Positions 17,481-39,364 of a stretch of 64,000 nt of DNA are shown here, piece by piece. A program made the translations under genes and the position numbers. Within the stretch, counting starts at the first letter, position 1. Every line of letters starts with the position of its first letter. This DNA comes from an uncultured SAR86 cluster bacterium (GTDB lineage Bacteria > Pseudomonadota > Gammaproteobacteria > Magnimaribacterales > Magnimaribacteraceae). The stretch covers positions 231,790 through 295,789 of the forward strand of contig CACBBD010000001.1 of NCBI GenBank assembly GCA_902537425.1, in the 5' to 3' direction. Below the pieces are notes generated by a model. The model was not told the origin of the DNA. It searched no databases and was given only the letters and a program-made list of their open reading frames with translations.

Positions 17481-17903
17481 CTAAAAGGGAAAGAAGGTCA
17501 TCTCTACTGTTTCAGTTTCTAAATTCATTACAGTCTCGCAATAGTTCATATTGCCATCTGTTACATCATCTAAAGACCAAAACTTCATAATGGCTCCTTC
17601 TCTTCTAAAAACACCTTGTCTGGATCCGGCTTGTCTTACTCCGTCGTTAAATCCCACTCCTCTTCCAGAGAAGTAACCCTGATCAGGCAAAGCCGAATTT
17701 AAAGTTACATTGTAAGTTAAGAAAACTTTTCCATATCTCCCAGCTTCAGAAGAAACAGTTATAGTTCCACCGCCATCAGTAAGTTCAACTGATGTTATAG
17801 TTCCTGAAAGAGTAAATGATTCACCTTTTGGATCATGTGCTAATGCAGATAAAGAAAAAAATCCTGACATGATTATGGCAATGCCATATTTAATAAATTT
17901 CAT
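17481..17903 (-). CDS. Secreted hypothetical protein (paralog of 18601-19044)
   Basis: Signal peptide ending ALA; AGGAG RBS; shares GKV.LT.N and QG...REG motifs with paralog. Confidence 0.75.
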   Translation of the reverse strand: MKFIKYGIAIIMSGFFSLSALAHDPKGESFTLSGTITSVELTDGGGTITVSSEAGRYGKVFLTYNVTLNSALPDQGYFSGRGVGFNDGVRQAGSRQGVFRREGAIMKFWSLDDVTDGNMNYCETVMNLETETVEMTFFPF

Positions 17904-18600: not shown

Positions 18601-19044
18601 ATGAGAATTAAATTAATAAAAAGAATCGGTCTTCTGGCCCTAATGACATTTTTACTAACAAATGTAAGTACATTATTTGCCTTGGATGTACAAGGAGATT
18701 CATTTGATGCTGAATTCAAAATAACTTCATGGAGTGCAACTAATACGGATAGCACAATTACATCTGAAGGAATAGTCGGAGAAGGTTTTGGAAAGGTGTA
18801 CCTTACCCATAACTTTAGATCTAGATCTGGTGATAACACTCAGGGAGATTTTGATGGTCAAGTTAGATCCATTAATAATGATGGAGTCATGGTTACGGCT
18901 ACCCTCCAAGGAATATGGAAAAGAGAAGGTAAAATTGTGAACATGTATACACTTGATACTTTCTCTGACGGAGGAATGATTTATGCTGAAGGAAAAGTAG
19001 ATCTTGTTGAAGGAACCTTAAAATTTAAGGCGTTCGAATTTTGA
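18601..19044 (+). CDS. Secreted hypothetical protein (paralog of 17481-17903)
   Basis: Signal peptide; motif similarity to 17481-17903. Confidence 0.75.
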   Translation: MRIKLIKRIGLLALMTFLLTNVSTLFALDVQGDSFDAEFKITSWSATNTDSTITSEGIVGEGFGKVYLTHNFRSRSGDNTQGDFDGQVRSINNDGVMVTATLQGIWKREGKIVNMYTLDTFSDGGMIYAEGKVDLVEGTLKFKAFEF

Positions 19045-26540: not shown

Positions 26541-27338
26541 TCATCCATGTTTTTTGATCAAATTTATTGCCCATTTCTTAACATTTGGATTTTTTTCAAT
26601 ATCCAGAATGAATTCTTGGCCAAATCCTCTGTAAAAAACTGTGGATTCTTCCTCATTCTCCCACTTCATTCTATTTAAAAAAAGGTCTTTTGAATCCTTA
26701 AAATATTTGGAGGGTAACTTCCATCTAGATCTGGTTTTATTTTCTTCAGTCAGAATTAAATCTGTATGAGTATATCTAAATAATCCATGGCCTCGGTCAA
26801 AAATTTTTCTTTTATTAAGTTCCAATCGTTTCTTAGCTATGTAAATTGTATTATTAGAAAACCTGGAGGTGTCTCCATATCCATGAGGGTGTTGAATATT
26901 ATTCTCACGAAGATAACTTTTAATTTTTTTTGACCCTTCTATGATTTTATCTATTTGCAACCAGCCAAATAAATGATGCAAATCTCTGCCATCTGCAGAG
27001 AAATTTTTAAACCATCCAAAAAATAAAAACACATCTCCAGGACCTACATGATTATTCTTTAATTCAGTCTGAGATGAGCTGGCTTGTCCAAAAATACCTA
27101 TTCTTTCGTTGAGCAACGGATCATAATGACAATAATCCGTATCCTTCACTTTAGCCGAGACCTCTTTCAATAAATCAGAACCTGATATGCCATTAAAATC
27201 CAGGTCTTTATATTTTTTTGGTGAACAATGATTTTGGGGGATAGGTATTGAAAAAAAGCTTCCATCATTAAATATAGGTGAAGCACTACCACCCGCTTTT
27301 GAGTCAAAACCCTTTCTACTTAATATTAATCTCCTCAA
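26541..27338 (-). CDS. Nucleotide modification associated domain 3 (Nmad3)-like protein
   Basis: ILSRKGFDSKAGG..SPI, HYDP, FGQ, GDVFLFFGWF, LFGWLQI. Confidence 0.7.
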   Translation of the reverse strand: MRRLILSRKGFDSKAGGSASPIFNDGSFFSIPIPQNHCSPKKYKDLDFNGISGSDLLKEVSAKVKDTDYCHYDPLLNERIGIFGQASSSQTELKNNHVGPGDVFLFFGWFKNFSADGRDLHHLFGWLQIDKIIEGSKKIKSYLRENNIQHPHGYGDTSRFSNNTIYIAKKRLELNKRKIFDRGHGLFRYTHTDLILTEENKTRSRWKLPSKYFKDSKDLFLNRMKWENEEESTVFYRGFGQEFILDIEKNPNVKKWAINLIKKHG

Positions 27339-27850: not shown

Positions 27851-27904
27851 TATTACTTGGGGTGAACTAATCCACAGTGACTGATTAGTTTTAAGAAGTG
27901 ATTT
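27851..27904 (-). repeat. Junction site A (core 27870-27885; reads SVTVD-stop)
   Basis: + strand cta|atccacagtgactgat|tagttttaagaagtgattt. Confidence 0.85.
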
Positions 27905-27910
27905 AATTCT

Positions 27911-28354
27911 TTATTTTCCAGTTGAAATATTTATTGGAATTATAGCCATCTTTAATTTCCAATAATCTCCTCTTTTTATTAAAGTTAAATTTGTATCCGT
28001 TGATATAAGTTCAATATCTTGATTGTTAAATCTAGTGAAATTAGTTTTATATATTGCAAAATCTTTTTGTGAAACTAATGGATCTGTGGAATTGATTTTT
28101 GAATATGACCAACCTTCTTTTTTTAAGTTTTCATAATTAACAATTTCACTGTAACTTTTTGCAACTATTATTTCATCGCCAACAAAATAAGTAATTGGTA
28201 AATCCCATAGCTCATTAATTTTATTTATATCCATCTCATTGAAATGATAGAAAAAATCTTCGATCACTTTCTCAGGGTTGTTGTTTGAGTCTTTTGCAAA
28301 TAACAAAGAAGAAAATAAAAATAAAGTTACTAAAATGTTTCTCATAAAAATCAC
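27911..28354 (-). CDS. Secreted NTF2-like hypothetical protein (module 5 cargo)
   Basis: Signal peptide from ATG 28345 (alt GTG 28354); EKVIEDFFYHFN...W..SKI...NFTRFN...WKL. Confidence 0.65.
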   Translation of the reverse strand: MIFMRNILVTLFLFSSLLFAKDSNNNPEKVIEDFFYHFNEMDINKINELWDLPITYFVGDEIIVAKSYSEIVNYENLKKEGWSYSKINSTDPLVSQKDFAIYKTNFTRFNNQDIELISTDTNLTLIKRGDYWKLKMAIIPINISTGK

Positions 28355-28401
28355 TTTTTAAAATTACTCCACTGTAACAGGGTATCTGTAGCAAGGTTTC
28401 T
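28348..28401 (-). repeat. Junction site B (core 28367-28382; PVTVE-stop, plus RNLA-like relic)
   Basis: + strand aaatcactttttaaaatta|ctccactgtaacaggg|tatctgtagcaaggtttct. Confidence 0.85.
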
Positions 28402-28571
28402 CATGGATTTAATAGGTCTATGAGAGAATTATTTTCATCCACGATCCTGTGTCGTATGTCTTTTTGTTTTACCATCTGCTTCATTACACGGAAAGCATCT
28501 GCTTCATTTGTTTTGGTTTGATAGTGTTGCCAGTTACCCCACCTGTCTTGCCACTGTATTTTATATTTCAT
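28401..28571 (-). CDS. 56-aa hypothetical protein (below ORF-track cutoff; module 4 cargo)
   Basis: Manual translation MKYKIQWQDRWGNWQHYQTKTNEADAFRVMKQMVKQKDIRHRIVDENNSLIDLLNP; starts 2 nt after upstream stop and fills the gap. Confidence 0.65.
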   Translation of the reverse strand: MKYKIQWQDRWGNWQHYQTKTNEADAFRVMKQMVKQKDIRHRIVDENNSLIDLLNP

Positions 28572-28573
28572 TG

Positions 28574-28960
28574 TTATCCAAATAATATGTGATGAAAAAA
28601 TCTTCCTGGCATCAAAGTAAATGCACCAGCAATCAAAAGTGCCCCAACATAAACACCAATCATCGAATACATATGTGAGTATTTGTATCTTTCTATTTTT
28701 GTTTTTTTATATTTCTTTATGTTCCAAATTGAATAAATCAGAGAAACCAAAGTGAAGGGTATCAAAAGATGAATCCATGAATATTGTCCAGGGTTAATTG
28801 TTTGAATAAATATTGCTGTCAAAGAAACTATTATTAAAAAAGTTACCCAGATTCGTCCGAGCATTTTATGTTGCTTTGTGCCCTTTTTAGTTAGGAAGAT
28901 GTAAAGACCAAGAGGAACTGCAAGTAATGCTAACGTTGCATGAACATAAATTATCTGCAT
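28574..28960 (-). CDS. DUF2306 family membrane protein (module 4 cargo)
   Basis: HATLA...KGTKQHKMLGRIWV...WIHLL...GALLIAGAFTLMPGR. Confidence 0.8.
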   Translation of the reverse strand: MQIIYVHATLALLAVPLGLYIFLTKKGTKQHKMLGRIWVTFLIIVSLTAIFIQTINPGQYSWIHLLIPFTLVSLIYSIWNIKKYKKTKIERYKYSHMYSMIGVYVGALLIAGAFTLMPGRFFHHILFG

Positions 28961-28972
28961 ATTTTATATTTT

Positions 28973-29026
28973 AATTCTCTGTTCAAACTTACTCCACCGT
29001 GACTGATTAGATTTGAACAGTGATTT
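28973..29026 (-). repeat. Junction site C (core 28992-29007; SVTVE-stop)
   Basis: + strand aattctctgttcaaactta|ctccaccgtgactgat|tagatttgaacagtgattt; closest copy to glmS. Confidence 0.9.
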
Positions 29027-29032
29027 GATTTT

Positions 29033-29227
29033 TTATCCATAATTGTCCGAAAAATATTTTTCTCTATCTTCTTTATTCATGCCAACTGTTTCGTTCATAA
29101 AATTGTTTCTATCTTCTCTAGATTTAAAGACCCATATACAAACAGTGTCCTGTGAGTGATAGATTGCTTTTAGTTCATCATCTATTTCACAGATTTCTTT
29201 AGGGATTTCTGTCTTAATACAAATCAC
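29033..29227 (-). CDS. 64-aa hypothetical protein (module 3 cargo)
   Basis: ORF fills the module; GTG start lies in terminal IR. Confidence 0.65.
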   Translation of the reverse strand: MICIKTEIPKEICEIDDELKAIYHSQDTVCIWVFKSREDRNNFMNETVGMNKEDREKYFSDNYG

Positions 29228-29274
29228 GATTCAAATCTACTCAACGGTAACAAATTAGATTTGAGTGCAGAATT
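29221..29274 (-). repeat. Junction site D (core 29240-29255; FVTVE-stop)
   Basis: + strand aaatcacgattcaaatcta|ctcaacggtaacaaat|tagatttgagtgcagaatt. Confidence 0.88.
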
Positions 29275-29346
29275 AAGAGTATAGTTTTTTCTGAACCCTT
29301 TGTGAAACTTCAAATAAAATTCAATATCTTTATAGTTCATAAAAAA

Positions 29347-29703
29347 TCAACATATCATGCAATGATCGATAAGAATTTTGCCCTCTTCTTCCTTAAAAAT
29401 TGCTTGATTGATCAATTCGTCGTTGCTTGAAGAAGTTTTTTGTTTCCAAACAATTCCAACTGAGTCGCTTCTTCGAAATAAACACACAAACTCTCTTTTA
29501 GTCCAAAAAATATTTGGTTCAATTGATAACTGTCTTTTGAGTTCTTCAGGTGTAACTATGGACTTCATTCTATCTGTGAAATCCTTTGTATGCTTTTTAT
29601 GGTCACCCTCATTGGAACCCTCCAAACAACTATCCATAATCGGTTCTACTATACTAAGAATTTCATCTTCACTAAGATTGGGGAGTTTCAATTCTGCACT
29701 CAA
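29347..29703 (-). CDS. Hypothetical protein (module 2 cargo)
   Basis: 118-aa ORF; TTG start within terminal IR. Confidence 0.7.
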   Translation of the reverse strand: MSAELKLPNLSEDEILSIVEPIMDSCLEGSNEGDHKKHTKDFTDRMKSIVTPEELKRQLSIEPNIFWTKREFVCLFRRSDSVGIVWKQKTSSSNDELINQAIFKEEEGKILIDHCMIC

Positions 29704-29743
29704 GATTATTCAACCGTAACGGAGTAAGGTGAACCGATCTTTC
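29690..29743 (-). repeat. Junction site E (core 29709-29724; SVTVE-stop)
   Basis: + strand aattctgcactcaagatta|ttcaaccgtaacggag|taaggtgaaccgatctttc. Confidence 0.88.
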
Positions 29744-29861
29744 TCATACCCACTATCTTAGCAGTATTTGAAAGGGTTTGAGTTTGCTTGCATGAATTAC
29801 TCATTTTTACTTTAGATACCTTCTACTATTTCACAAATTAACACTAGTTGAGGTTTTTCTC

Positions 29862-30791
29862 CTATCCTTTAAATCCAATCCAAAACTTTTCTACATAATT
29901 GTTTTCAATTGATAGTCTAAGTTCTTCCGTGAATTTATTATGTATTCCTTTCTTCTCAGTGATTTTTAGCAAATTTATATTTCTAGTCTTTAAATTTTCT
30001 ATCATCTTTTTGTTTGGTAGTCTGTTACTTTTAGAACTATTTTCTTCAGGCAAAACATACACTAAATTCCATAAATCATCTGAATACATATAGGACCAAG
30101 GAATAACATGATCTATAGAAGGTGTTCCTAAAATTTTTTTTCCGGTTAAAAAACACTTTCTCTTAGGATTTTCTTCATCTATAAATTTACGAAATTTATT
30201 TAGATTTCCACGTTTTGGAAATTGATCTCTATCAACTCCTTTAATTTTTTTTGATATTCTGGGTGACCCATCCATAGTTTCTAGTTCTTGTGTCCAACGA
30301 TAGTTAATTGAGTTATATAAAATCTCTGAATAGGTTTTTAAAACCTCTGGATTAGATATTTCAATTTCTCTATTACTTAGGTCATAGTCATAAATTTTAT
30401 TTACCTTTCCTCCAAGATTTAAAAATCTTTTACATACATCCTTCTTTAAAACTGAACTAATTTTTGTAACTGGAATATCTATTTTGCTCTCAACCCTAAG
30501 AAATGTTTCTTTTTTAAAACCCCTTGAGGATTGGTATTCTCTAATGGAATTTTCAACAATTTGTATGATCTCTGGTTTTTTGTTTCTGTTGTGACTTTGA
30601 TTGAGATTAAAAAAAATACACTGATTCCAATAATACTTAAAGATTAATCTAGATAACTGATCAAAATGAACTTTCTTTTTGGGTGTTTTTTCACAAAATT
30701 CAACGATAGACCTTATCCAAGACATTTTGTAAGTGTTATCCATAGATCCATAATTTATGAGATCTAACGTTTTTTTAAGATACGGATCCAT
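29862..30791 (-). CDS. HNH endonuclease domain protein (module 1 cargo)
   Basis: N-terminal DNTYK motif; C-terminal CFLTG...IDHVIPWS...DDLWNLV...ENSSKSN. Confidence 0.8.
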   Translation of the reverse strand: MDPYLKKTLDLINYGSMDNTYKMSWIRSIVEFCEKTPKKKVHFDQLSRLIFKYYWNQCIFFNLNQSHNRNKKPEIIQIVENSIREYQSSRGFKKETFLRVESKIDIPVTKISSVLKKDVCKRFLNLGGKVNKIYDYDLSNREIEISNPEVLKTYSEILYNSINYRWTQELETMDGSPRISKKIKGVDRDQFPKRGNLNKFRKFIDEENPKRKCFLTGKKILGTPSIDHVIPWSYMYSDDLWNLVYVLPEENSSKSNRLPNKKMIENLKTRNINLLKITEKKGIHNKFTEELRLSIENNYVEKFWIGFKG

Positions 30792-31189
30792 TAATATTTT
30801 TGTTTATGAGGAATTACTCCTCTAACTCCGCCACTTGGGTCTTCAACGTCATTTTTGTACCTTGGAATTAGATGAATATGAACATGGTCTATTGTTTGAC
30901 CACTTTCTTGTCCACAGTTGATTCCGATATTGTATCCCTGTGGTTCAAATTTTTTATCTAAGTAGTCTTTAGTTTGAAAAATTAATTCATTTAATCCTCT
31001 GACCTCTTCTTCAGTGGAATCAAAATAGTTTGGGTAAACTCTTTTTGGAATAATTAGAGAGTGTCCTTCACTTACTGGGAAATTATCAAAAATTACAAAT
31101 CCAATAGAGTTCTCAAAAATACGTTTTCTGTTATCTAAAAATGGACTTCTGAAATCTTTTGGGTCACTCATAAAAATATTCTGCCACAA
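30791..31189 (-). CDS. HIT family nucleotide hydrolase (module 1 cargo)
   Basis: FPVSEGHSLIIPKR, GYNIGINCGQESGQTIDHVHIHLIPR; start may be ATG 31171. Confidence 0.92.
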   Translation of the reverse strand: MWQNIFMSDPKDFRSPFLDNRKRIFENSIGFVIFDNFPVSEGHSLIIPKRVYPNYFDSTEEEVRGLNELIFQTKDYLDKKFEPQGYNIGINCGQESGQTIDHVHIHLIPRYKNDVEDPSGGVRGVIPHKQKY

Positions 31190-31370
31190 CTCCTAATAAA
31201 TATCCTGTGAATACACATAAGAGATCGCAACAAGTCATATCAACACCTTATGACTTCCACTAACACGAAAAAATAGGTGAGAATTTAAGGGTAGTTTTTA
31301 CCAGGGTTAAGTTTTAGTGATTTTTGAAACCCCCGCAGAATGAGGTGTTAAAACGAAAGTTGGGTTGAAC

Positions 31371-33206
31371 TTACTCCACCGTCACTGACTTAGCGAGGTT
31401 TCGCGGCTGATCAATGTCAGTACCTTTAAGGATGGCAACATGATAAGCAAGAAGCTGTAATGGTATCGAGTAAATTAGAGGAGCAATCAACTCTGGGACT
31501 TCAGGCAGTTCAATAAACTTAGTTATTGATTCATCTTCCTGATGAGCTGCAGAGTGTCCAAATACATATAGCTTTCCTCCTCGCGCTCTAACTTCTTCTA
31601 AGTTTGATTGAAGCTTTGCAAGCAGATCATCATTAGGAGCAACCGCGACGACAGGCATTTCTGAATCAACAAGAGCCAATGGTCCATGTTTTAATTCTCC
31701 TGCAGGATATGCTTCTGCATGAATATAGGAAATTTCTTTAAGCTTTAGTGCACCTTCCATAGCTACGGGGTAATGAATGCCTCTACCCAAAAAGAGAGCA
31801 TGTTCCTTTTGATCAAAATCTTCTGCCATTTCAATAATTTGATCTTCAAGCAACATTACCGAATCTAAAGAATCAGGTAGTGCTCTAAGTGAATTATTTA
31901 TGGTATTTTCTGCAGCCGAGGATAGACCATGATGCCTTCCGAGAATTAAAGTTAACATCAATAAGCCAACGAGCTGAGTGGTAAAGGCTTTTGTTGAAGC
32001 AACACCTATTTCAGGGCCTGCTTTGGTTAAAAATACTAAATCAGATTCTCTCGCTAGAGAACTTGAAGGGACATTGCATATTCCTAGTCGAGCTAGGTAG
32101 CCTGAATCTTTAGCGGCACTTAAACATGCCAGTGTATCTGCTGTTTCACCAGACTGAGAAATGGTTATAAACAGGGTATTGGGTGCCACTACTTTATTTC
32201 TATATCTAAATTCACTTGCCACTTCTACGCTGCAGGGCAAACCGGCAAGACCTTCTAGCCAGTATTTAGCTACTGTTCCGGCATGGAAGCTAGTTCCACA
32301 AGCCACTATCTGAACGGCCTCAACATTTTTAAAAATATCAGGTGCACTAGGCCCAAATATTTCTTCTTGAACACCTGAATCAGTCAATTGTCCTTCTAAT
32401 AAGCCTTTAATTTTTGATGGCTGCTCATTAATTTCTTTTAGCATGAAGTGCCTATATTCACCTTTATCTACCGTCTCTCCTAAAGACTTGGCAACTACAA
32501 CAGGTCTTTCAACTTCAGTATCATCCAGATCCCAGTAGCGAATTCCTTTAGATGTGATTTCAGCAAGATCGCCGTCTTCAAGAAATACAAATTTCTCTGC
32601 AAAGTCCGCTAAAGCAAGTTGATCGGAAGCTATAAAATTTTCTCCGTGCCCCATACCGATAACCAAAGGGCTACCTTTTCTGGCTGAAGCCAAAATTCCA
32701 GGTTCGTTCTCACAAACTGCACCTATTGCATAAGCCCCTCTGAGATCCTTCACTGCCGCCTTCAAGGCATCGATTAAAGTTACTTTATTCTCGCTCATTT
32801 TTGCATGAATCAGATGAGCAATAACTTCTGTGTCTGTTTCTGACTCAAAAACATAACCTAAAGCTTTAAGTGTGGTTCTAATTTCTTGATGATTTTCAAT
32901 AATGCCGTTATGAATAACAAAAATATTATTATTTGAATGGTGCGGGTGAGCATTTGTCTCTGTTGGCAGGCCATGGGTTGCCCATCTGGTGTGGGCAATA
33001 CCCGTATTACCATTCACAGGATTTTGATCAATTGAATTTTGCAGTTCAGCTACCTTACCAGTGCTTTTAAATACCTTTATTTGTTCTGTTTCATCAAAAA
33101 TGGCAAGGCCAGCTGAGTCATATCCTCTATATTCCTGACGCAAAAGCCCTATCAGTAGTTTATCTACTGAGGGTTTACTGGAAGCTACTCCGATTATTCC
33201 ACACAT
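31371..33206 (-). CDS. glmS: Glutamine-fructose-6-phosphate aminotransferase
   Basis: MCGIIG, EYRGYDSAG, HTRWATHG, SQSGET, PRNLAKSVTVE. Confidence 0.98.
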   Translation of the reverse strand: MCGIIGVASSKPSVDKLLIGLLRQEYRGYDSAGLAIFDETEQIKVFKSTGKVAELQNSIDQNPVNGNTGIAHTRWATHGLPTETNAHPHHSNNNIFVIHNGIIENHQEIRTTLKALGYVFESETDTEVIAHLIHAKMSENKVTLIDALKAAVKDLRGAYAIGAVCENEPGILASARKGSPLVIGMGHGENFIASDQLALADFAEKFVFLEDGDLAEITSKGIRYWDLDDTEVERPVVVAKSLGETVDKGEYRHFMLKEINEQPSKIKGLLEGQLTDSGVQEEIFGPSAPDIFKNVEAVQIVACGTSFHAGTVAKYWLEGLAGLPCSVEVASEFRYRNKVVAPNTLFITISQSGETADTLACLSAAKDSGYLARLGICNVPSSSLARESDLVFLTKAGPEIGVASTKAFTTQLVGLLMLTLILGRHHGLSSAAENTINNSLRALPDSLDSVMLLEDQIIEMAEDFDQKEHALFLGRGIHYPVAMEGALKLKEISYIHAEAYPAGELKHGPLALVDSEMPVVAVAPNDDLLAKLQSNLEEVRARGGKLYVFGHSAAHQEDESITKFIELPEVPELIAPLIYSIPLQLLAYHVAILKGTDIDQPRNLAKSVTVE

Positions 33207-38851: not shown

Positions 38852-39364
38852 TTATTTGATTTGATTTCTTAATTTTTCAAGCTTTCCTTTAACGCTGTAA
38901 TCTGTAACTTCGTCACCGCATTTGATAGAAAAACCACCTATTAAACTTTTGTCTATTACTTGTTCCACTGTTAATGAATCTCCATATTTTCCTTTTAGAG
39001 AGTCTGTAACTTTCTTTAATTGCTCGTCTGTTAACTCAAAAGCAGACGTAATCAAAACCTCGCTAGAGCCTTTTGTTCCCGATAACAACTTTCTGTATTC
39101 TTTGGAGATGTGCGGAAGAAGTGAAATTCTTTTAGACTCACCTAACACTTTAATGAAGTTGCTGGTTTTGCTTTCAATTTGGCCTTCAAACAAAGAGAGG
39201 AACATTTCAGTCTTCTCCTTATAAGCAAGCTTGGGAGAATCTATCAACTGTTGTACTTCAGGTGTCTCTAGAGCTAGCTCAAGCTGACCAAGGTCCTTTT
39301 CCCATCCTTCAGAATGGTCGTAGATCGCTTGGGCGTATGGTCTTGCTATGGTCTCGAAATTCAA
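38852..39364 (-). CDS. atpH: ATP synthase delta
   Basis: [16 protein letters not shown]; operon position. Confidence 0.95.

Follow-up and report, generated by a model that had tools for sequence, protein, structure and literature searches.

Why should the short non-coding junctions behind a glmS gene repeat the end of that gene, and why should they vary as coding DNA does? The question is raised by a 64,000-nucleotide stretch (the window) of contig CACBBD010000001.1, positions 231,790 to 295,789, from an uncultured SAR86 cluster bacterium. The assembly (G000) comprises 1.34 Mb with about 36% GC and is 74% complete; the window stretch is present in seawater metagenomes, and the host is therefore a marine bacterium. 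Behind glmS, on the minus strand, stands an array of small genes separated by 18-base cores that can be read as the last codons of glmS. These cores are best explained, with a probability of roughly 0.8 and judging from sequence comparison, as hybrid recombination sites that join gene cassettes in a stack at the glmS end, that is, as junctions which a large serine recombinase (LSR) would have built.

The following features of the window are needed to follow the argument:

31371..33206, minus strand: glmS, open reading frame (ORF) of 611 amino acids (aa), its last codons being the proposed insertion target
31371-31388, minus strand: glmS-end core, SVTVE-stop; host 5' half, the AC at 31382-31381 and the 3' half of the cassette adjoining glmS; attL-like
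29706-29723, minus strand: core E, SVTVE-stop; hybrid junction
29237-29254, minus strand: core D, FVTVE-stop; Ser codon broken in the 5' half
28989-29006, minus strand: core C, SVTVE-stop
28364-28381, minus strand: core B, PVTVE-stop; Ser codon broken in the 5' half
27867-27884, minus strand: core A, SVTVD-stop; last junction

The gene is presumably glmS, a name taken from its sequence and from the gene order (after glmU and the atp operon) rather than from a family scan.

Variation of the cores

The original prediction had listed these six cores with the reading S/P/F-V-T-V-E/D-stop, and both their positions and their reading hold in the window sequence. The core pattern has seven matches in the window against 1.0 expected, and none of 100 shuffles gave seven or more; the seventh match, at 38960, falls in the atp region and not in the array. 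Regions with such cores were collected from genomes of the family (40 regions, of which five with single matches in unrelated genes were set aside; two weak sites were dropped later), and of the 26 loci that include a glmS end, 24 hold one or more additional cores. A departure was defined as a base differing from the majority at 97 cassette junctions, taken from 35 loci of relatives and the window. The predicted concentration of changes at third codon positions was confirmed over these many arrays, with 35, 39 and 297 departures at codon positions 1, 2 and 3 (297 of 371 at the third). Just past the array, several genomes carry a very long gene with repeats spaced at 339 bp, whose N-V-T-V-D-Y motif imitates the core pattern by chance (L043:4800-9000, L053:4000-9800, L054:4100-10300).

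The point of exchange

The two halves of a core have different associations. For 33 pairs of junctions with a common downstream cassette, identity at core positions 3, 6, 9 and 12 was 0.27, 0.24, 0.73 and 0.85, and for 39 pairs with a common upstream cassette it was 0.72, 0.77, 0.38 and 0.56. Position 6 does not vary in 2 of 15 downstream families and in 8 of 12 upstream ones; for position 9 the figures are 9 and 1, respectively. Positions 3 and 6 follow the upstream module, and positions 9, 12, 15 and 18 the downstream module. Since identity switches between positions 6 and 9, the exchange is placed at positions 7-8, the AC dinucleotide of the Thr codon, which is invariant at 98-99% and forms the dyad axis of the arms described below. 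The crossover is thus not near the Ser codon, where it had been expected.

The same distinction appears when an identical cassette is found both directly behind glmS and internally (20 pairs, seven families), as positions 12 and 15 are equal in 19 and 20 of the pairs and positions 3 and 6 in 4 and 2 only. In 15 families an identical cassette stands beside different neighbours, joined at AC. A co-travel of cores with modules therefore exists, with each core half travelling with its own module. The 3' half is the cassette's own and the 5' half is the arm of the previous cassette, so the proposal that the cores record earlier hosts did not hold. The related proposal that each core once served as a glmS C-terminus survives for the 3' part, given the seven families that occur directly behind glmS and internally with identical 3' letters and the seawater joins given below, and fails for the 5' half. 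Consistent with this, TCC makes up 34% of cassette 5' halves versus 4% of 26 host glmS ends.

Cassettes bounded by their own arms

The sequence following one core recurs in reverse complement ahead of the next core, so that each module is bounded by its own pair of inverted arms of about 20 bases, a point absent from the original prediction. The arms of one cassette pair at 17/24 or better in 54% of 89 units, as against 7% of non-self pairs and 9% of 100 pairs formed by the two sides of the same junction. Because own arms pair and same-junction sides rarely do, the arms are a property of the cassette and not of the junction. Between 12 and 26 bp from the centre their complementarity is 0.75-1.0, although the arm sequences themselves differ greatly. 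Intact and rebuilt sites alike form an imperfect palindrome of about 52 bp around AC. The symmetry extends for 26 bp to each side, in agreement with LSR elements, whose attP measures about 50 bp and has the crossover dinucleotide at its axis of symmetry. In LSR systems, attB is further marked by a ZD motif that lies 5 bp closer to the centre, and a directionality factor reverses the otherwise one-way attP x attB reaction. Cassettes and LSR sites share an identical symmetry profile and an identical centre.

The 87 bounded units have a median length of 496 bp, and 64 of them hold one ORF. The glmS orientation is shared by 102 of 108 ORFs, and 67 of the 87 units start at most 45 nt from the core stop, a spacing which suggests that the cassettes may be read from the glmS transcript. 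Units without an ORF of at least 45 aa also occur, such as a 65-bp unit directly behind glmS (L059:3226-3291) and an ORF-less 186-bp unit common to three genomes (L041, L042, L061).

The probable recombinase and its split tail

PF07508 matches were found in 4 of 47 family genomes, and four of the five matches are frames of about 115 aa that start at glmS-array junctions. For this domain (RD2), 2582 relatives of similar length exist, and only three of the best 150 representatives exceed 200 aa. It occurs in 22 of 266 genomes of the order, where 24 of 26 match rows, some repeating one place, start at most 90 nt from a core. In a viral contig, which reveals where RD2 comes from, the domain forms the C-terminus of an LSR of 703 aa, and the reading frame of this LSR passes through a glmS-like core flanked by paired arms. 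Because the LSR gene reads through the palindromic site, insertion separates the last, DNA-binding domain of about 115 residues from the rest of the protein.

The 54 LSR homologues fall mostly into two length classes, about 570-590 aa and about 700 aa. The 703-aa LSR (P0275) has both PF00239 and PF07508, i.e. the catalytic and recombinase domains, and the catalytic Ser (S12) and C300, C302, C324 and C339 are invariant in 45 aligned LSR sequences. The LSR model, with a predicted local distance difference test (pLDDT) score of 79, matches solved serine integrases in a Foldseek search (best E 1e-19) and has long helices at 366-459, so that the zinc ribbon and the coiled coil of this enzyme class are represented. 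Residues 565-621, which the site encodes, are predicted to be disordered, and for this reason the stretch would tolerate any frame. A core lies at the LSR 3' end in 61 of 84 LSR loci by our count, and most others end before that place. An LSR alignment search of genome contigs gave two loci. Eight short LSRs (P0277, P0279, P0281, P0287, P0290, P0291, P0294, P0324) end in S-x-T-V-E, and since frame and stop are shared with GlmS, the core 5' half codes the recombinase's own C-terminus in them. In a Spirosomataceae contig (L098:9631-11646), an LSR gene lies between a glmS core and an inverted core with 164 identical bases; this is either an invertible segment or an assembly artefact near the contig end, and it suggests that the LSR family reaches a second phylum.

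A run of at least nine A precedes the core by 20-80 nt in 42 of 45 LSR loci (exactly nine in 39), the loci being hand-picked with near-duplicates partly removed. No such run occurs in 72 kb of preceding LSR coding DNA or before the 97 cassette junctions. Among 32 loci read in three frames, 20 have intact sites with RD2 following. It is in frame in six of these, and in the other 14 it lies in the -1 frame, which is open from the run onward. The +1 frame was never seen at intact sites, and the three +1 cases are hybrid junctions with the RD2 of the next element. A conserved slippery run with a second frame open from it is the hallmark of genes with programmed frameshifting or slippage, and the A9 run likely drives a -1 shift; transcriptional slippage and a ribosomal -1 shift look alike in the sequence. 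Sequencing error is unlikely as the cause of the -1 frames, as 14 of 14 shift in the same direction in divergent contigs. The attP hairpin was ruled out as a frameshift stimulator at a fixed distance, the A run lying 39-66 nt before the core.

LSR-less RD2 cassettes exist as well. In three of the seven that are readable (L078:3723-7713, L234, L236), the RD2 frame gains a start codon only with the ends joined, the rebuilt circle putting an ATG from the far end in frame.

LSR elements and cassettes

The LSR elements are marine, 6-10 kb long and in some cases assembled as circles. Integrated elements show the order glmS, core, RD2 and then, at the other end, LSR body and core (L097, L101, L190, L212), and in a genome of the same order (L225) the integrated element sits on three mini-cassettes. 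Intact sites were found on L141, L159 and L166 (3 of 12 checked), contigs of 6.0, 6.8 and 10.4 kb that have terminal repeats. A second LSR element type has the opposite orientation (L100, L151, L155, L156, L192). Autonomous elements also carry a second small recombinase of about 180-210 aa, of resolvase type in L097, L212, L206, L192, L185 and L141 and of tyrosine type in L190 and L101, and L097 and L190 have a weak match to the replication-protein family PF23343.

The cassettes with arms of at least 15/24 (n = 56) were compared with the LSR sites, and 32 match one at 28/40 or better, where the maximum for shuffled sequences is 24. Of the 26 best-matching cassettes, 25 share only the arms of about 20 bases with the LSR sites and nothing beyond. 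Because the likeness stops at the arm, the cassettes are regarded as minimal units. The window cassettes encode no recombinase, so these units are non-autonomous; a recombinase is present on the elements in L097, L101, L190, L212 and L225.

The following cassettes were delimited in the window:

29718..31380, minus strand: cassette 1, 1665-bp unit with a HIT gene (30791-31168) and an HNH gene (29862-30791)
29249..29715, minus strand: cassette 2, 469 bp, single 118-aa ORF (29347-29703) with its start inside the arm
29001..29246, minus strand: cassette 3, 248 bp, single 64-aa ORF (29033-29227)
28572..28998, minus strand: cassette 4, DUF2306 gene (28574-28960), 3' arm and next core missing
28376..28571, minus strand: cassette 5, 56-aa ORF (28401-28571), upstream core missing here
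27879..28373, minus strand: cassette 6, 497 bp, single 147-aa ORF (27911-28354)

The arms of cassette 2 are 18/24 complementary and share 32/40 positions with the site of the LSR element in L212; the cassette also occurs in the relative G040, there behind a different neighbour. Cassette 3 (20/24) shares 32/40 with the intact LSR site of L205, and the best LSR-site match of cassette 6 (19/24) is 29/40. The arms of cassette 1 (about 31351-31370 and 29724-29743) pair at 18/24. Its non-coding leader of about 200 bp (window 31170-31370) belongs to an arm family that is also present, with variable cargo, in L034 and L055 and that has no matching LSR in the set examined. The stretch from core C to core B is an exception, with arms of 10/24, since it consists of two cassettes that lack the junction between them. 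A complete 511-bp copy of the DUF2306 cassette lies directly behind glmS in a relative (G040; L046), and in relatives the ATG of the cassette 5 ORF overlaps the stop of a core; cassette 4 likely lost its 3' arm and core when about 95 bp were deleted at a short shared word, as the alignment suggests. Seawater contigs join glmS ends directly to window cassettes 4, 5 and 6, with short sides and at low depth. Two further low-depth seawater joins connect the start of a cassette with its own end; circles and tandem relatives would explain them equally well, and they were not used as evidence.

Defence-type cargo lies in or beside the arrays of L055, L047, L034, L039 and L046 and at window 26541-27338 and 29862-31168, comprising DarT with NADAR, a type I restriction-like pair, HNH with a C5 methylase, a NucS/MrcB-like nuclease, MazG-like, Nmad3 and HIT-HNH proteins. 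Elsewhere in the window, two similar-looking proteins of about 140 aa without a Pfam match (17481-17903 and 18601-19044, on opposite strands) flank a 222-aa gene.

Why the cores look synonymous

Among 25 LSR attachment sites (21 intact, 4 rebuilt), T-V-E-stop is intact in all 25 and S-V is altered in 12 (Fisher p = 9e-5, the sites not being independent). The 3' half must give a working GlmS end and the 5' half need not. As the 3' half of a cassette re-creates T-V-E-stop, glmS stays intact and the target is renewed. The resemblance of the 5' half to glmS likely reflects the bases which the enzyme reads in both partners, and the wobble positions would vary since the enzyme would have to accept synonymous glmS ends.

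Changes in the 3' half affect 15 of 34 last junctions versus 12 of 63 internal ones (p = 0.016), and changes in the 5' half, at 11 of 34 and 23 of 63, are not commoner in last junctions, a class that partly reflects contig ends or fetch limits. Core A has no arm partner downstream, and an identical last junction occurs in G040. Because 3'-half changes are commoner in last junctions, the 3' half of core A, with its E>D change, and its right flank are likely the displaced old glmS end. It is likely that only core A keeps the 3' half of an old host, and the excess in last junctions does not fit the other cores recording hosts.

Proposed mechanism

The observations are likely to represent LSR island accretion with integron-like cassettes and a probable recoding switch. 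An LSR supplied from a passing 6-10 kb element would perform the exchange, the 3' half of the incoming cassette would replace the end of glmS, and mini-cassettes would be moved in trans as circles. Slippage at A9 would give a long enzyme of about 700 aa and a short one of about 575 aa. In the weakest step, the long form would arise only from an intact site and would favour integration.

A broader reading is tentative and clearly less probable than that of the cores themselves. According to it, the system could be a serine-recombinase counterpart of the integron, in which an ocean-wide pool of one-gene cassettes would be shuffled at the glmS end by visiting LSR elements, with the direction set without a separate factor. 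The intact site and A9 slippage would add a second DNA-binding domain for integration, insertion would cut this domain off and leave the excising form, and some LSR-less cassettes would make the domain only while circular.

Several points weigh against LSR-built junctions. G000, at its 74% completeness, has no match to an LSR or a resolvase, none of the 47 family genomes has an LSR, and 3 of 266 order genomes have one; because of this scarcity, the enzyme would have to be supplied in trans. An exact search of viral contigs with the commonest cassette arm gave no match, the arms of cassette 1 match none of the LSR sites found, and 33 of 89 units score below 15/24 on their arms. Moreover, 12 of 63 internal junctions have an altered 3' half, and RD2 alone gave no match at E <= 0.001 in a fold search. 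Because neither the pairs nor the sites are independent, the p-values are too optimistic, and recombination, circles and the frameshift product are all inferred from sequence.

Alternative explanations

The strongest alternative, which is nevertheless unlikely, is that the cassettes are decayed LSR elements that no longer move and were spread among relatives by homologous recombination. The lack of an LSR in the 47 family genomes would fit such dead scars, as would the broken arms, the deletion between cassettes 4 and 5, and the fact that neither the seawater contigs nor the viral-contig arm search showed a mini-cassette circle; decay does happen, as about 20 order genomes with RD2 but no LSR body show. 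However, decay does not account for identical cassettes joined at AC to different neighbours in 15 families, or for the seven families found both at glmS and internally. Remnants of elements are also difficult to reconcile with 25 of 26 best-matching cassettes sharing nothing but their arms with LSR sites, and with 64 of 87 units being compact and holding one gene.

It is considerably less probable that the mini-cassettes borrowed the site and are moved by another, hairpin-reading enzyme of an integron-, HUH- or IS110-like type. Arms that are very symmetric despite widely varying sequence could be read in this way, and some arm families have no matching LSR in the set examined, but cassettes and LSR sites agree in symmetry profile and centre, and no such enzyme is found among 84 cargo and flanking proteins scanned. 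In G000 itself, PF00589 is matched only twice, by open frames of 301 aa and 313 aa that lie on C2 and C11. A tyrosine integrase was rejected as the enzyme, since most family genomes have about two strong PF00589 matches and no core lies near the weaker ones (16 loci). No recombinase was detected by Pfam at E <= 1e-4 among the cassette cargo (84 proteins).

Finally, the model of the original prediction, a host glmS end captured and duplicated at insertion with variants recording hosts, would explain the third-position bias over the whole 18-mer and S-V as the still commonest 5' half, but it is scarcely tenable, being largely refuted by the co-travel data with the crossover at AC, by 3' letters that follow the cassette even on glmS, and by the TCC excess in cassette 5' halves over host ends.

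Comparison with known systems

Integrons are arrays of compact, co-oriented cassettes with the tyrosine recombinase IntI beside the array, a promoter upstream that serves the cassettes jointly, and the crossover at the base of the attC hairpin. The glmS arrays resemble them in their compact, mostly one-gene, co-oriented cassettes at one fixed site and in their defence and small-enzyme cargo. In contrast, the centre is of the serine type with 2 bp, the crossover lies between the arms, and the enzyme is not resident. No IntI stands at the array; the two PF00589 proteins of G000, likely XerC/D, are not on the window's contig. Tn7 also uses the conserved glmS 3' end, where it inserts downstream of the stop by transposition with a 5-bp duplication and tns genes. 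Islands are likewise built at this end here, but the exchange falls within the Thr codon and a new gene end takes the place of the old one; scans of 84 and 61 proteins gave no Tns family. Split archaeal tyrosine integrases offer a further comparison.

The closest described system are the Dehalococcoides ssrA islands with the serine integrase DsiB (McMurdie et al. 2011, PMC3146451). They too are tandem islands behind an essential single-copy gene, some without integration genes. In these islands, dsiB overlaps attL, and DsiB was proposed to be whole and fully functional only on the circle (PMC3146451); here, the LSR gene 3' end overlaps the attachment site in the same manner, and several elements carry a small second serine recombinase as well. 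Unlike the ssrA islands, the target is the end of a protein-coding gene, the detached part is a folded, recombinase-like domain of about 115 aa preceded by a conserved A9 run, and most units are one-gene cassettes of about 500 bp.

Phage serine integrases (Listeria LI/A118, Bxb1, phiC31) have half-sites of about 25 bp around a central dinucleotide (PMC3783163). This geometry, the catalytic-RD-ZD domain order with a coiled coil and the fold are shared by the LSR described here. The differences are a site inside the integrase gene, an extra C-terminal domain and a target renewed for repeated insertion; no directionality factor was identified, and no search aimed at one was made. Nine A's are the run length for transcriptional slippage in Thermus dnaX and insertion sequence (IS) elements (PMC1088944). 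As there, A9 stands between two reading frames with long and short products, which are predicted in the present case. In contrast to Thermus dnaX and the IS elements, the run stands ahead of an attachment site here, and formation of the long product would hence depend on the DNA state.

Full-text searches, in a library without the subscription papers and bioRxiv supplements that may bear on novelty, turned up no account of LSRs that target glmS, of arrays of their cassettes or of an LSR tail in a shifted frame. The terms 'glmS' and 'glucosamine' are absent from the main text and eight supplementary files of Durrant et al. (PMC10083194).

Implications

If this reading is true, natural long and short LSR forms with matched attP, attB, attL and attR sequences are at hand, and the 2011 proposal of a serine integrase that is whole only on the circle becomes directly testable. 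The many arm variants facing one conserved target would form a natural series for attP specificity, and the glmS end would be a widely conserved landing site. For streamlined marine bacteria without a resident recombinase, the arrays would provide an integron-like gain and swap of single genes, including anti-phage cargo.

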